DNA of 17,828 bases from a virus (lineage: Duplodnaviria > Heunggongvirae > Uroviricota > Caudoviricetes): IMG/VR virus record IMGVR_UViG_2563366803_000003. The stretch is one strand, 5' to 3'. Below, piece by piece: positions 6,713-17,828 of the stretch. The notes under the pieces were generated by a model that made no database searches, was not told where the DNA came from, and saw only the letters and a program-made list of their open reading frames with translations. How positions within the stretch are numbered: the first letter of the stretch is position 1; the number at the start of each line of letters is the position of its first letter. Made by a program: the position numbers and the translations under genes.

Positions 6713-6745
6713 AAACCCGGCACGGTGGCCGGGACGTTTTATTTC
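6713..6745. terminator. Bidirectional rho-independent terminator (stem cccggc...gccggg, flanked by T-runs on both strands); likely end of the cI operon (tImm-like)
   Basis: aaaacccggcacggtggccgggacgttttatttc immediately after the stop of the 6739-7251 gene. Confidence 0.65.
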
Positions 6746-7251
6746 AAAGAAAAATTATGACTAGCGTATCTTGGAAGAAATTCATATAGTGTTAATGTCT
6801 TAACGCCGTGAGAAGCAGCAGCATCCGGGATCATTATTCTTTTTTTAGGTTTGCCACCGGATGGTTTCTCATGGGTAATAATAGTATATCCATGTGTCAT
6901 CGCATGGGCTATTAAAAAAGCATCTGCTTTTTCATGGCTTGCAAAATCAAACTTTGCCTTTTCGGTAACATCTAATTTAGTTGACCAATTTATTAACTTT
7001 GCATAATTTTCTATTGAACTATGCTCATCTTCGAAGAATGATGATGGTAACTCTTCTTTAATCCATTTACACAATGGATCATCTTTTGCACATAGTTCTT
7101 TTTTTACAGCATTAATGCTATAAATCAGACCATTCATGTGTAAAGCGAGAAGAAAATCCCAAAATATTTTGCAATAATTGAAGTTATATGCAAAGTTTTT
7201 TGCCTCTATGAAGACATTACTATCAATTAAGAATTTTCCATTATGAATCAT
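6739..7251 (-). CDS. DUF4411-type PIN-like putative nuclease (170 aa); candidate effector of a two-gene defense/toxin module
   Basis: Size, N-terminal FLIDSNVFI strand with conserved Asp and later acidic residues fit a PIN-like fold; ATGA start/stop overlap with upstream metallopeptidase gene; AT-rich composition. Confidence 0.6.
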   Translation of the reverse strand: MIHNGKFLIDSNVFIEAKNFAYNFNYCKIFWDFLLALHMNGLIYSINAVKKELCAKDDPLCKWIKEELPSSFFEDEHSSIENYAKLINWSTKLDVTEKAKFDFASHEKADAFLIAHAMTHGYTIITHEKPSGGKPKKRIMIPDAAASHGVKTLTLYEFLPRYASHNFSLK

Positions 7252-8387
7252 AGAGATTCTCGTTTTTTATAAAATTCAACAACTGTATCTGCTTTTACAT
7301 TTAGCAGTACGCCTGCTTCCCTTAATGGTAATTGTTGAGACATTGCTTTGGAAATTATTATATTCGTAAGTTTTGGACTGTTACGAACAGGTAATGTGTT
7401 AAAGAAAGAACCACCATTAGATTCTTTTTTGGGCTTATTGTAAGCTTGATCTTTAATTATCTCCAAAGTGTTTCTTTCTATCAAATCTAATTGTAACGCT
7501 TTGATTGCACAAGCGAAATCACTAACCTTAAATAACTTAGAAACCTCTTTTACTCGATAATAATTATTATCGCTGGATGCATTAAGCCAGAAAGATTTGA
7601 AGAGATTATCAGGCATTAAGATTTCAGCAGCAACTTTATTACAAAAAGATTCTATGTTTTTTTCTGTGTCCCACCCAGAGACTCCATCGACTCCAAGCCA
7701 AAGATGAGCCACCTCATGAAATAATGTAAATACCTGCGCAGATAACGCGTCCGAGCTATTTACAAAAATGATCGGAGCAACGCTATCAGATATACAGAAA
7801 CCACGAAACTCTCGCGTGTCAAGTTTTCTTTTATTATTATTACCCACAACACCATTCTTGAAAACTAATACGCCAGTGTCTTCTATTAGTTTTGCCACTT
7901 TAGAAAAATAGCTCTCAAAAGTGACATTTTTTATCTCTTTTTGTATATCAAAATGTATTGTGTTTGCTATGTCTGTAGCAACAACCTTATAATTTAATTT
8001 TCTATTAAATTTAAATTTACCAATAAAATCGAGTGGATCATCATTACCATTTTCTCTTAAATAGTCTTTGTACCACTCAAGTTTATATTCTATATCATAG
8101 TAAACATCAAAAAAATCTTTTCCTAACTCACGGCTATTTATAGCTTGCCTTAAGTCAGGGATCTTGGGTTTGGCTGGAGTTGGTGGCGTTTCAAGAAATA
8201 AAAAACCGAAAGGGATTCCTCCAATTTTTGCCAGTTTTTCTGCTGCGGATTTACTTACCACTCCGTTAAGAAATTTATTAATCTTTTTGGGCATGACTTG
8301 GTCAGCAAGAGTTTCGATAGAAACTCCTTGAGAATTTGCTATCCAATCAATCATCTTCCTAGACAATTGAAATTCAACCGCTGCCAT
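7248..8387 (-). CDS. HTH + ImmA/IrrE-family (COG2856/M78-like) zinc metallopeptidase, 379 aa
   Basis: HExxH motif in FTLFHEVAHLWLG; N-terminal HTH-like segment (IDWIANSQGVSIETLADQV); AGGTGA SD upstream of ATG at 8387; translationally coupled to DUF4411 gene. Confidence 0.7.
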   Translation of the reverse strand: MAAVEFQLSRKMIDWIANSQGVSIETLADQVMPKKINKFLNGVVSKSAAEKLAKIGGIPFGFLFLETPPTPAKPKIPDLRQAINSRELGKDFFDVYYDIEYKLEWYKDYLRENGNDDPLDFIGKFKFNRKLNYKVVATDIANTIHFDIQKEIKNVTFESYFSKVAKLIEDTGVLVFKNGVVGNNNKRKLDTREFRGFCISDSVAPIIFVNSSDALSAQVFTLFHEVAHLWLGVDGVSGWDTEKNIESFCNKVAAEILMPDNLFKSFWLNASSDNNYYRVKEVSKLFKVSDFACAIKALQLDLIERNTLEIIKDQAYNKPKKESNGGSFFNTLPVRNSPKLTNIIISKAMSQQLPLREAGVLLNVKADTVVEFYKKRESL

Positions 8388-12784: not shown

Positions 12785-13624
12785 ATGAAAAAAGCCATAG
12801 CATATATGCGATTTTCATCACCAGGTCAGATGTCTGGTGACTCATTAAACCGACAGAGAAGACTTATTGCTGAATGGTTAAAGGTAAATAGTGATTATTA
12901 TCTTGATACCATAACATATGAAGATTTAGGATTAAGTGCATTCAAAGGAAAGCATGCACAATCAGGAGCTTTTTCGGAATTTTTAGATGCTATAGAGCAT
13001 GGTTATATATTGCCAGGAACTACATTGTTAGTTGAAAGTCTGGACAGACTTTCAAGAGAAAAAGTCGGTGAAGCGATTGAACGTCTGAAATTGATTTTGA
13101 ATCACGGTATTGATGTTATAACTCTTTGCGACAATACAGTCTATAATATTGACTCTTTGAATGAGCCATATTCATTAATAAAAGCCATACTTATAGCACA
13201 AAGGGCAAATGAAGAAAGCGAGATAAAGTCAAGTCGGGTTAAATTATCATGGAAGAAAAAACGGCAGGATGCAATGGAATCAGGTACGATTATGACGGCG
13301 TCTTGTCCGAGATGGCTCTCCTTAGATGACAAAAGAACGGCTTTTGTTCCAGACCCCGACAGGGTGAAAACTATTGAGCTAATTTTTAAACTCAGGATGG
13401 AAAGGCGCTCATTGAATGCAATAGCCAAGTATTTAAATGATCATGCTGTAAAGAATTTCTCAGGAAAAGAAAGTGCATGGGGACCTTCTGTAATTGAAAA
13501 ATTATTAGCGAATAAAGCTCTGATAGGTATATGCGTACCTTCATATCGTGCAAGAGGGAAAGGGATAAGTGAAATCGCTGGCTATTATCCCAGAGTTATA
13601 TCAGATGATTTGTTTTACGCTGTA
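12785..13624 (+). pseudogene. ybcK: ybcK-like serine recombinase, truncated after about 280 codons by IS1
   Basis: N-terminal resolvase-type catalytic domain (AIAYMRFSSPGQMSGDSLNRQRR... with catalytic Ser), reading frame runs into IS1 left terminus at 13625. Confidence 0.8.
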
Positions 13625-13639
13625 GGTAATGACTCCAAC

Positions 13640-14143
13640 TTATTGATAGTGTTTTATGTTCAGATAATGCCCGATGACTTTGTCATGCAGCTCCACCGAT
13701 TTTGAAAACGACAGCGACTTCCGTCCCAGCCGTGCCAGGTGCTGCCTCAGATTCAGGTTATGCCGCTCAATTCGCTGCGTATATCGCTTGCTGATTACGT
13801 GCAGCTTTCCCTTCAGGCGGGATTCATACAGCGGCCAGCCATCCGTCATCCATATCACCACGTCAAAGGGTGACAGCAGGCTCATAAGACGCCCCAGCGT
13901 CGCCATAGTGCGTTCACCGAATACGTGCGCAACAACCGTCTTCCGGAGACTGTCATACGCGTAAAACAGCCAGCGCTGGCGCGATTTAGCCCCGACATAG
14001 CCCCACTGTTCGTCCATTTCCGCGCAGACGATGACGTCACTGCCCGGCTGTATGCGCGAGGTTACCGACTGCGGCCTGAGTTTTTTAAGTGACGTAAAAT
14101 CGTGTTGAGGCCAACGCCCATAATGCGGGCTGTTGCCCGGCAT
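13640..14143 (-). CDS. insB: IS1 InsB (the longer 194-aa ORF in the track is the out-of-frame upstream extension used for InsAB' frameshifting)
   Basis: Same frame and sequence as copy A InsB, with one amino-acid difference (H vs R). Confidence 0.93.
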
Positions 14144-14337
14144 CCAACGCCATTCATGGCCATATCTATGATTTTCTGGTGCGTACCGGGTTGAGAAGCG
14201 GTGTAAGTGAACTGCAGTTGCCATGTTTTACGGCAGTGAGAGCAGAGATAGCGCTGATGTCCGGCGGTGCTTTTGCCGTTACGCACCACCCCGTCAGTAG
14301 CTGAACAGGAGGGACAGCTGATAGAAACAGAAGCCAC
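14062..14337 (-). CDS. insA: IS1 InsA
   Basis: Identical protein to copy A InsA. Confidence 0.95.
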
Positions 14338-14392
14338 TGGAGCACCTCAAAAACACCATCATACACTAAATCAGTAAGTTGGCAGCATCACC

Positions 14393-14512
14393 CTCACTAA
14401 AGCAGGTTTCTGGCTGGATGATGCTCAGGTCGTTGATTACCGCGTTGTGAAGATGCCTGTTACCAAAGGTGGGAGGCTGGAACTGACCATCACCGAAATG
14501 GGGAATGAATGA
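14393..14512 (+). pseudogene. rusA: 3' fragment (last 39 codons) of rusA Holliday-junction resolvase, fused directly to the IS1 terminus
   Basis: Translation [39 protein letters not shown] equals the RusA C-terminus as recalled; no start codon or N-terminal part. Confidence 0.8.
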
Positions 14513-14649
14513 TGTTTGAGTTTAATATAGCAGAACTTCTTCGCCACCGCTGGGGGCGTCTGCGCTTATATCGTTTCCCCGGTTCTGTTTTGACCGATTA
14601 CCGAATACTGAAGAATTACGCCAAAACCCTGACAGGAGCAGGAGTATGA
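14509..14649 (+). CDS. ylcG: YlcG small protein (46 aa), start overlaps rusA stop (ATGA)
   Basis: Translation [46 protein letters not shown] matches DLP12 YlcG as recalled. Confidence 0.7.
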
Positions 14650-14734
14650 AGTCAGAGATAACAATCAACTAATACTGTTTTATTGATTTTTGCTTGTAAT
14701 TGGCGTTCTGGTCTGATTTTTGTGGAGTAAGTTG

Positions 14735-15118
14735 ATGCGTGATATTCAGATGGTTCTTGAGCGTTGGGGAGCGTGGGCGGCTAATAATCATGAAGATGTG
14801 ACCTGGTCGTCCATTGCCGCCGGTTTTAAGGGATTAATTCCTTCAAAAGTAAAATCTCGCCCGCAATGTTGTGACGATGACGCGATGATCATTTGCGGGT
14901 GCATGGCCCGTCTGAAAAAGAACAACAGCGATTTGCACGATTTATTAGTAGATTATTATGTAGTCGGTATGACATTCATGTCACTGGCAGGTAAGCATTG
15001 CTGCTCTGATGGTTATATCGGGAAAAGGTTACAAAAGGCTGAGGGCATAATTGAAGGGATGTTAATGGCATTAGATATCCGGTTAGAGATGGATATCGTT
15101 GTTAATAACTCTAATTAA
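14735..15118 (+). CDS. quuD: Late-gene antiterminator Q (QuuD-like), 127 aa
   Basis: Translation [24 protein letters not shown]...[16 protein letters not shown]... with Cys-rich zinc-binding motif; GGAG SD 7 nt upstream. Confidence 0.85.
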
Positions 15119-15143
15119 TACGCCAATTATTTACTAAAAGTTA

Positions 15144-15298
15144 TTAAAAATGGGGCGTTGAAACGCCCCCAAAAATAAAGGGTAATATATAACAGAAGGT
15201 TTGTATAGTTAGAAGCAAGGTTGTGCTTCTAAAGGAAGTGGCTTGAGGGAGCCACTTATATGTTGGGGAGGCAAAGCCTCCCACAACATATCTTTTAG
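15144..15298. promoter_or_regulatory. Q-downstream region with three hairpins (15151-15170, 15238-15256, 15257-15290). Likely contains pR'/qut and a tR'-like terminator on + strand (15257-15298) and a convergent terminator for the porin gene on minus strand (15144-15170)
   Basis: Stem-loops read directly; the 15151-15170 hairpin is followed by a T-run on the minus strand, the 15257-15290 hairpin by CTTTT on the plus strand. Confidence 0.4.
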
Positions 15299-15306
15299 TA
15301 ATCAAA

Positions 15307-16389
15307 TTAGAACTGGTAAACCATACCTACAGCAACGATATCATCGGTAGCAACGCCAGATGCTTTCGTGAAATCGCTCTTATCAATCAGGTTGATTTTG
15401 TAGTCAACAAAAGTGGACATATTTTTGTTGAAGTAATAGGTTGCACCTACATCAACATATTCAACCAGGTCCTGATCACCCCAAACACCCAAGTCTTTTC
15501 CTTTAGAATGCAGGTAAGCAACGGATGGACGCAGGCCGAAGTCGAACTGATATTGTGCAACAGCTTCGAAGTTTTGTGCTTTGTTGGCAATATGGTTATT
15601 ACCAAAAACAGTCATGTTCTGGGTTTCAGAATAGGTGGTGGCCAGATAGATGTTGTTCGCATCATATTTCAGACCAGCTGCCCATACTTCAGCATTTTGA
15701 CCAGAAGCATTCAGACCGTTGTTACCGTAGATAACCTGATTATTAGTGCGATCAGATTTAGCATAGGTTGCACCTACACCGAATCCTTCATACTCATAAG
15801 TAGTGGAGAAACCGAAACCATCACCATTAGCTTCAGTTACGTCAGTGCGGTCATTTTTACCCTGATACTGAGCAGCAAAGTTCAGACCATCAACCAGACC
15901 AAAGAAGTCGTTGTTACGATAAGTTGCAACACCAGTGGTGCGACCAGTCATGAACACATCTGTTTGAGTCCAAGTGTCACCACCGAATTCTGGCAGGACG
16001 TCAGTCCACGCACCGATGTCGTATGCTACACCGTAGTTACGGCCGTAATCGATGGAGCCGTAGTCACCGAATTTCAGGCCAGCGAAGGCAAGACGGGTTT
16101 TATCTTTGGAGGAACCTTGAGATTCAGCGCGGTTGCCTTTGAATTCATATTCCCACTGACCGAAACCAGTCAGTTGATCGTTGATTTGGGTTTCACCTTT
16201 GAAGCCAAGACGGGCATAAGTAGTATCACCATCATCTGCATCATTAGAGGAGAAGTAGTGCTTAGCATTAACTTTCCCGTACAGATCCAGCTTGTTACTG
16301 TCTTTATTATAAATTTCAGCTGCCTGAGCAGACATCGCCATCAGTACTGATGCAGCTACAGCAGAAATTGCCACTGTTAATTTTTTCAT
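15307..16389 (-). CDS. nmpC: Outer-membrane general porin of the NmpC/OmpD/OmpC family, intact (360 aa with signal peptide)
   Basis: Signal peptide [23 protein letters not shown], beta-barrel porin sequence ending ...VGMVYQF; opposite orientation to the phage late genes (moron). Confidence 0.9.
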
Positions 16390-16978
16390 CGTGAGCCCTT
16401 TTTTTTGAACTATTATTAAAAAATGATGTCACTGCGCGATAAATATTCATCTAATCAATGTGATTATTTCAAGATGTAAGTTTTAGTTTCTCATTTAATT
16501 TGTGAAGTAGATCTCTATTTTTATCTGAACTTTTTCTATCGAAACCTATTTATGGCTCTTATTTGAACAAAAATAAACCTATTAGCTAATTTATATTAAT
16601 GGCTGTTATTTATGGGGGGGTCTATAATTCGATGGTTTAATTTAAATTAACTAAAAATAACGCCGGAAATTATTTATTGGTTATTTGTTGAGGTTTTCTT
16701 ATGTATTTGTGGTGGTGTTTTGAACACTCGGTAGCATTCTCATAAATATCATTCAGTGGTTTACGTACGTAAAAAATTGGTTATGCTGTTAAGAGTGGTT
16801 ACTTCGTCACACAGCTTAAACCCGCCGTCGAGCTGGTTTTTCCATTTTTTGAGTCTCGATATTAGCTGATAACTCAATACCTGAGTTATTCACTGACTCC
16901 GAGTCTGTTACGTTTCTGCTTTTTTGCGATACGTTGTATTCCCTCAATTTACACCCGCTTTGTCTGCGAGGTGGGGTT

Positions 16979-17194
16979 ATGAAATCCATGGATAAGTTAA
17001 CAACGGGTGTCGCCTATGGCACCTCAGCAGGTAGTGCCGGTTACTGGTTTTTACAGCTGCTCGATAAAGTCACGCCCTCACAGTGGGCAGCAATAGGTGT
17101 GCTGGGTAGCCTGGTATTTGGCCTGCTGACGTACCTGACAAACCTTTATTTCAAGATTAAAGAAGATAAGCGCAAGGCTGCGAGAGGTGAATAA
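16979..17194 (+). CDS. essD: Class II holin / pinholin of the S21 family (71 aa) with dual-start motif MKSMDK
   Basis: Translation [71 protein letters not shown]; two TM segments; stop overlaps endolysin start (TAATG). Confidence 0.85.
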
Positions 17195-17599
17195 TGCCTC
17201 CATCATTACGAAAAGCCGTTGCTGCTGCTATTGGTGGCGGAGCAATTGCTATAGCATCAGTGTTAATCACTGGCCCAAGTGGTAACGATGGTCTGGAAGG
17301 TGTCAGCTACATACCATACAAAGATATTGTTGGTGTATGGACCGTATGTCACGGGCATACAGGAAAAGACATCATGCTCGGTAAAACGTATACCAAAGCA
17401 GAATGCAAAGCACTCTTGAATAAAGACCTTGCCACTGTCGCCAGACAAATTAACCCATACATCGAAGTCGATATACCGGAAACAACGCGCGGCGCTCTTT
17501 ACTCATTCGTTTACAACGTGGGTGCTGGCAATTTCAGAACATCGACGCTTCTTCGCAAAATAAACCAGGGCGATATCAAAGGCGCATGTGATCAGTTAC
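17194..17599 (+). pseudogene. rrrD: SAR-endolysin (RrrD/R21-like lysozyme) truncated near codon 135 by IS2 insertion
   Basis: N-terminal signal-anchor-release segment [20 protein letters not shown]; lysozyme core; frame continues into the IS2 terminus giving a chimeric tail [16 protein letters not shown]. Confidence 0.8.
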
Positions 17600-17828
17600 T
17601 AGACTGGCCCCCTGAATCTCCAGACAACCAATATCACTTATTTAAGTGATAGTCTTAATACTAGTTTTTAGACTAGTCATTGGAGAACAGATGATTGATG
17701 TCTTAGGGCCGGAGAAACGCAGACGGCGTACCACACAGGAAAAGATCGCAATTGTTCAGCAGAGCTTTGAACCGGGGATGACGGTCTCCCTCGTTGCCCG
17801 GCAACATGGTGTAGCAGCCAGCCAGTTA
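17600..17828 (+). mobile_element. IS2 (IS3 family), terminal part only; continues beyond window
   Basis: Terminus tagactggccccctgaatctccagacaaccaatatcacttaa and downstream orfA (insC) start match IS2 as recalled. Confidence 0.85.
17691..17828 (+). CDS. insC: IS2 OrfA (InsC) transposase N-terminal part, partial at window end
   Basis: Translation [46 protein letters not shown]. Confidence 0.85.

Follow-up and report, generated by a model that had tools for sequence, protein, structure and literature searches.

Introduction

Can a lambdoid prophage that keeps an intact pinholin gene, and whose endolysin gene has been cut by an insertion sequence, still lyse its host? This question is raised by a stretch of 17,828 nucleotides of phage DNA (IMG/VR record IMGVR_UViG_2563366803_000003; hereafter the window), in which the holin gene is followed by an endolysin gene that runs into IS2. 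The original prediction for this stretch, made from its letters, had described a cassette of a pinholin and a signal-anchor-release (SAR) endolysin inactivated by IS2.

The model for such a cassette is phage 21. There, late transcription antiterminated by Q leads to two products of one holin gene, the antiholin S71 and the pinholin S68, which are translated from two different starts. The endolysin is exported by Sec and its SAR helix tethers it, inactive, in the inner membrane. When the pinholin triggers, the membrane depolarises, the SAR helix exits the bilayer, and the enzyme refolds and cuts the murein, after which the spanins disrupt the outer membrane. We consider it very probable that the window carries a cassette of this kind belonging to a DLP12-type prophage, that its endolysin gene rrrD has been broken by IS2, and that the cassette would kill the cell and be unable to lyse it.

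Results

A DLP12-type prophage at argU

The window maps to scaffold KE137162.1 of assembly GCA_000408585.1 from Escherichia coli KTE102 (locus L003; window position = L003 position + 7193). A tRNA-Arg(TCT) gene (1479-1555) adjoins a phage integrase gene on the minus strand (1571-2734), and an Rfam scan of the whole window returned tRNA only. The window also carries genes for Exo/Bet/Gam-type recombination, an S24-type repressor and replication (O and P), as well as a Q-type late antiterminator gene on the plus strand (14735..15118, or L003 7542-7925; PF06530 Phage_antitermQ), whose homologue quuD is found in the collinear genome RM14723. Between Q and the holin gene lies an intact NmpC/OmpC-type porin gene of 360 aa on the minus strand (15307..16389; PF00267 Porin_1, E=3e-152), in the same position as the gene annotated "porin OmpC" in RM14723 (L001). 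Judged against RM14723 and the source scaffold, the gene order Q, porin (on the opposite strand), essD, rrrD, rzpD and bor/iss is that of DLP12, and on sequence grounds we assign the locus to an argU-integrated lambdoid prophage of the DLP12 type, resident in E. coli KTE102. In K-12, the DLP12 prophage (essD, rrrD/ybcS, rzpD/rzoD) occupies the same argU/intD site and has the same gene order, and the products go by the same names, EssD and RrrD, in annotation. With its lambda-like packaging and head genes downstream, the window prophage is presumably less decayed than that of K-12.

Several other features of the window deserve mention in their own right. At its start is a partial IS1 (1-754). 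Upstream of argU, a response-regulator ORF on the minus strand (727-1299, 190 aa) holds the receiver domain only and runs 27 nt into this IS1; it appears to lack its C-terminal DNA-binding part. The other IS1 (13640-14393; 99.6% identity between the two copies) lies behind a truncated serine recombinase ORF of the ybcK type, only 306 aa long (region 12785-14393), and has the last ~120 nt of rusA as its right flank; this combination of a truncated ORF, IS1 and the 3' end of rusA implies that a deletion associated with IS1 has removed part of the nin region found in RM14723. Beside the S24-type repressor gene, the minus strand of 6739-8387 encodes a metallopeptidase of the ImmA/IrrE type (379 aa, PF06114) together with a DUF4411 protein of 170 aa, a pair that may represent an accessory or defence-type prophage module.

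An intact pinholin gene with two starts

The holin gene (essD/S21 type; 16979..17194, plus strand) runs from an ATG at 16979 to a TAA at 17192-17194. Read from Met1, it encodes the 71-aa antiholin form, and it matches PF04971 "Bacteriophage P21 holin S" over profile positions 1-63 of 64 (E=2e-35, 121 bits against a cut-off of 26). The active pinholin form of 68 aa would begin at Met4 (16988..17194): the MKSMDK dual-start motif (Met1-Lys2-Ser3-Met4, at 16979-16996) can be read directly, and the corresponding nested CDS in phage 434 is annotated as "holin class II". Just upstream (16968..16977), two adjoining Shine-Dalgarno elements, GAGGT and GGGGT, would serve Met1 and Met4; they are identical to the ribosome-binding sites annotated in phage 434 for the S71 antiholin and for S68. 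Phage 434 and mEp460 are among the 41 phage records whose holin is 100% identical to the 71-aa product, and over the 40 nt that surround the start codons the window and phage 434 do not differ. The original prediction of an S21-type pinholin with an MKSMDK dual start is thus borne out by the profile match and by an identical gene annotated with both products and two ribosome-binding sites. By identity with that annotation, both starts are putatively used here as well.

A crude hydropathy profile (Kyte-Doolittle means over 19 residues) gives a peak of ~0.7 for stretches beginning at residues 7-11 and one of ~1.7 for those beginning at residues 35-39, and a weak first (TMD1) and a strong second (TMD2) hydrophobic segment are as expected for a pinholin. 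The S68 protein of phage 21 makes small holes, depolarises the membrane and releases the SAR endolysin, and a triggered pinholin is lethal by itself (PMC9239132); given its identity with phage 21-type S68, the window's holin would be expected to make small depolarising holes and to release a SAR endolysin likewise.

Scans for regulatory signals gave little. In 15100-17828, no sigma-70-like promoter was found by a promoter scan, and the terminators returned by a terminator scan were not above chance expectation. RNA folding around the dual start (16945-17020) showed no unusual stability (z-score -0.5 against shuffles), and on this value a stem-loop for start selection was dropped as a candidate.

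An endolysin gene cut short by IS2

The holin stop and the endolysin start overlap by one base (TAATG). The endolysin ORF (17194..17649, plus strand) begins with an ATG at 17194, ends with a TGA at 17647-17649 and has a 151-aa product, namely residues 1-135 of RrrD followed by 16 residues coded by IS2. The native part, codons 1-135 plus one base (17194..17599), is identical at 406/406 nt to the intact rrrD of RM14723. Its product is ~99% identical over residues 1-135 to the solved RrrD (4zpu) and to the phage 21 lysozyme (3hde) and diverges afterwards; an alignment with R21 and RrrD was one of the checks that the original prediction had proposed. The predicted Gly/Ala-rich N-terminal SAR domain was also found. 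Identified by its composition and its hydropathy peak (19-residue stretches beginning at residues 7-9), it covers residues 8-27 (17215..17274), contains 7 Ala, 4 Gly, 1 Ser and 1 Thr, and is identical to that of R21 and RrrD. The catalytic motif E35-X8-D44-X5-T50 (17296..17343) is kept, as a regular-expression match at residue 35 to the definition E-X8-D-X5-T (PMC9239132).

What is missing is the C-terminus. Intact RrrD has 165 residues, of which the IS2 allele drops 30 (136-165) in exchange for the 16 coded by IS2, a proline-rich tail unrelated to lysozyme. The lost part includes the conserved segment W..GGK..KGL..RR.E (W138, G141-G142-K143, K146-G147-L148, R151-R152-E153). We judged the weight of residues 136-165 for the fold by their conservation among solved homologues, searching intact RrrD against solved structures: nine of 12 distant GH24 lysozymes align out to RrrD residues 152-163, no solved homologue ends before the lost segment, and in the printed alignments with lysozymes of the Acinetobacter-phage type this segment is among the best-conserved parts. 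Since the GH24 fold is missing its conserved C-terminal portion (residues 136-165), even though the catalytic residues are kept, the truncated endolysin is most likely misfolded and inactive, and we infer strongly that lytic activity would be lost.

It could be objected that the cassette is not inactivated at all, and that the 151-aa SAR endolysin keeps enough of its fold to degrade murein once released. Its intact SAR domain and catalytic motif, together with a match to PF00959 Phage_lysozyme (E=1.3e-36) that spans 105 of the 125 profile positions (3-107), speak in favour of residual activity. However, the 30 missing residues hold the segment most conserved between RrrD and otherwise dissimilar lysozymes, the substitute tail bears no relation to it, and RefSeq calls comparable IS2-split copies of rrrD pseudogenes, so that we regard an active truncated enzyme as improbable. 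The original prediction had itself named the retention of both the catalytic residues and a full lysozyme domain upstream of the junction, together with lytic activity, as the observation that would count against inactivation. The first part is seen, with E35, D44 and T50 all upstream; the second is not, as a complete domain of ~165 aa including the C-terminal segment is not contained in the 151-aa ORF. We therefore return to the loss of activity as our preferred reading and class the ORF, from its similarity and its truncation, as a disrupted member of the GH24 SAR endolysin family, in all likelihood a pseudogene.

A base-exact junction with IS2

The remainder of the window (17600..17828, plus strand) is the left end of IS2, an insertion sequence of the IS3 family; it covers nt 1-229 of 1331 and matches the IS2A copy of K-12 MG1655 from its first base at 227/229 positions. 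Because 17194-17599 equals intact rrrD at all 406 nt and 17600-17828 equals nt 1-229 of IS2, the junction 17599/17600 is exact to the base. In a direct comparison, the intact allele reads ...GATCAGTTAC followed by GTCGCTGGACA..., and the window ...GATCAGTTAC followed by TAGACTGGCCCCC.... The same boundary emerged when 16900-17828 was compared by megablast with 5,426 complete E. coli genomes: many matches were 100% identical and all of them ended at query position 700, which is window position 17599, where genome matches to the prophage side of a whole-window query end as well. The predicted cut at this point, with replacement of the endolysin's C-terminus, thus holds in every detail, and the matches that identify the holin, the endolysin and the IS2 junction are far beyond chance.

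IS2 lies with its orfA in the direction of rrrD, and the chimeric ORF stops 16 codons into the element. The first 46 codons of orfA (insC) follow at 17691..17828 on the plus strand, from an ATG at 17691 (PF01527 HTH_Tnp_1, E=3.3e-10; corresponding to insC1 of IS2A). Both mismatches to IS2A are accounted for by a TT at window 17641-17642 in place of the AA of K-12 at IS2 nt 42-43; it changes one residue of the chimeric tail (F for N) and has no obvious consequence.

Because the draft assembly was built from short reads and the junction lies 229 nt from a contig end, beside a scaffold gap, it is reasonable to ask whether a contig end was wrongly run into a repeated IS2 and rrrD is really intact. 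In line with this, the junction is absent from all 5,426 complete E. coli genomes. In these, 13 matches reach a coverage of 80% or more, and each of them carries its IS2 elsewhere. A contig assembled separately from another sample, a Hadza gut metagenome (L004), tells against it: this contig agrees with window 14322-17675 at all 3354 nt (0 mismatches), and so crosses the junction and continues for 76 nt into IS2. The same junction on an independent contig means that it is not an artefact of a single assembly; two further similar contigs have been reported, and the join falls exactly at IS2 nt 1, as real transposition would give. An assembly error is accordingly very improbable, and we treat the allele as genuine. 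It is rare, yet already present in public records: GenBank lists a protein identical to the 151-aa product under EOW10389.1 ("lysozyme [Escherichia coli KTE102]"), and among 15 billion proteins of one collection it turns up on just three contigs.

Beyond the end of the window

In the source scaffold, the sequence ends one base past the end of the window and gives way to 1815 Ns (L003 10637-12451). It resumes at the equivalent of nt 126 of rzpD, with the last 337 nt of that gene and a complete ORF for the Rz1 lipoprotein (MRKLKMMLCVMMLPLVVVGC...), followed by bor, a ylcI-like gene, Nu1-type and large terminase genes, and genes for gpW, portal, protease, decoration and major capsid proteins. The original prediction had directed attention downstream of IS2 to the remainder of rrrD and to Rz/Rz1. 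Of these, the 3' end of Rz and the whole of Rz1 are present, whereas the right-hand IS2 junction, the remainder of rrrD and the 5' part of Rz fall within the gap. A 40-mer spanning 17599/17600 had 0 matches in the GTDB representative genomes and in the JGI metagenome contigs, so that neither collection yielded the right-hand junction.

A simple insertion, in which GTTAC (17595..17599, plus strand) would be the duplicated 5-bp target site, predicts ~1319 nt of unseen sequence: 1101 nt of IS2, the duplication of 5 bp, and 213 nt belonging to rrrD and Rz. The estimated gap exceeds this by ~500 nt, and the right-hand contig begins inside rzpD with neither the right end of IS2 nor a remnant of rrrD. 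Both observations would suit a deletion or rearrangement mediated by IS2 after its insertion, with the 3' end of rrrD and nt 1-125 of Rz missing or exchanged for other DNA, so that the endolysin and the i-spanin are both destroyed. On the other hand, scaffold gap sizes are rough estimates, and the contig may break in rrrD/Rz merely because other lambdoid prophages carry near-identical copies; R and Rz sequences are indeed repeated among prophages, being found by megablast in a median of four places per complete E. coli genome. Moreover, all four IS2 insertions available for comparison, on which our choice of GTTAC also rests, are simple and flanked by 5-bp duplications. A rearrangement is thus unlikely, and a simple insertion of IS2 with a 5-bp duplication remains the most likely course of events.

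Other rrrD genes split by IS2

IS2 has entered R21-type endolysin genes more than once. In CV839-06 (and, by its megablast match pattern only, in ETEC1731), it lies at the DLP12 locus after rrrD nt 340, with a target-site duplication of CAATT. In PK8566, it is found at the same site of the gene, again with CAATT, in a prophage adjacent to trkG, and a trkG-adjacent prophage of CH4804 carries it after rrrD nt 294, with CAACG. In ET490, the copy sits at yet another locus and within Rz, a short way downstream of rrrD, with CTGTC. These copies, in or just after the rrrD homologues (L002 3603-4933, L007 3071-4400, L008 3025-4355 and L009 3284-4614), are complete at 1331 bp (1330 bp in PK8566).

The insertions of CV839-06, ETEC1731, PK8566 and CH4804 resemble that of the window in lying inside an R21-type endolysin gene next to an intact S gene, and RefSeq annotates their rrrD as pseudogene halves. 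They also share its orientation, as do all the insertions compared, but this is uninformative because our search joins same-strand pieces only and so selects for it. They differ in the point of insertion (nt 340 or nt 294 rather than nt 406) and, in PK8566 and CH4804, in not lying at the DLP12 site. That the same CAATT site at nt 340 is used in two prophage loci points either to a hotspot or to prophages exchanging sequence. One could go further and propose that the recurrence of IS2 in such genes reflects selection for loss of the endolysin with the pinholin kept, rather than neutral decay, or else a target hotspot of IS2. We regard this proposal as doubtful. If true, selected endolysin loss could avoid explosive lysis or the release of murein fragments, or alter vesicle output, and it would parallel the module loss reported in Shigella.

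Discussion

Taken together, these comparisons allow us to outline how the IS2 allele would be expected to work. Late transcription from a Q-dependent promoter would cross the porin gene in antisense and continue into S, R and Rz/Rz1. By transposition, IS2 has entered rrrD behind nt 406, and its orfA reads the same way as the gene. This should leave the pinholin steps undisturbed, with S71 and S68 both still made; the truncated endolysin, once released by the pinholin, would probably be non-functional, and the cell wall would then not be degraded. On induction, we would expect death without lysis, and the release of virions would be blocked unless another prophage supplied an endolysin. Other endolysins in the same genome could indeed complement the defect in trans.

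The closest reference for the intact state is phage 434, a viable phage whose record annotates an antiholin (from Met1), a "holin class II" (from Met4), a "SAR endolysin glycoside hydrolase", an i-spanin and an o-spanin. Its R protein is identical to the window's endolysin at 134 of 135 residues, and in the cassette of phages 21 and 434, S and R likewise overlap in TAATG and the same porin gene lies upstream on the opposite strand. The two differ in where they are interrupted: in the phage 434 record (L010), an IS5 lies inside the porin gene nmpC, which is intact in the window, while the endolysin gene of phages 21 and 434 is uninterrupted and that of the window is broken by IS2.

A similar contrast holds for K-12, where the DLP12 module is described as conserved whole (PMC7918800). 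There it is reportedly transcribed and influences vesicle production and cell-wall maintenance, and deletion of R and Rz with S kept raised vesicle production 2.4-fold (PMC7918800). By analogy with this result, a change in envelope physiology is a possible side effect of the IS2 allele. In Shigella, the same source (PMC7918800, citing Leuzzi et al. 2017) describes the loss of the whole DLP12 SRRz/Rz1 module as pathoadaptive and linked to virulence. Shigella and the window have in common that a resident lambdoid lysis module has been inactivated in a genome of the E. coli lineage. They differ in that Shigella is reported to have lost the whole locus, with a link to virulence, whereas in the window a single IS event removes only the C-terminus of the endolysin.

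The original prediction had added that the lesion helps to domesticate the prophage. This idea is speculative and finds no support: it is weak because the lethal pinholin is intact, and the prophage bears other, IS1-associated lesions as well. More generally, the S21 pinholin, the R21/RrrD SAR endolysin, IS2 and DLP12 are all of known kinds, the disruption of prophage genes by insertion sequences is routine, and a lysis cassette broken by IS2 is an ordinary kind of prophage decay.

The significance of the allele is therefore mostly one of annotation, EOW10389.1 being labelled plainly as a lysozyme when it is, on our reading, the product of an IS2-truncated pseudogene. For the biology of KTE102, it leads to two predictions: that an otherwise well-preserved argU prophage would kill the cell on induction and not lyse it, and that the roles of the DLP12 module at the level of the host, such as the vesicle and cell-wall effects described in K-12 (PMC7918800), would be lost or altered in this strain. 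Beyond KTE102, the recurrence of IS2 in rrrD homologues may serve as a small pointer for surveys of lysis-gene decay in resident prophages.
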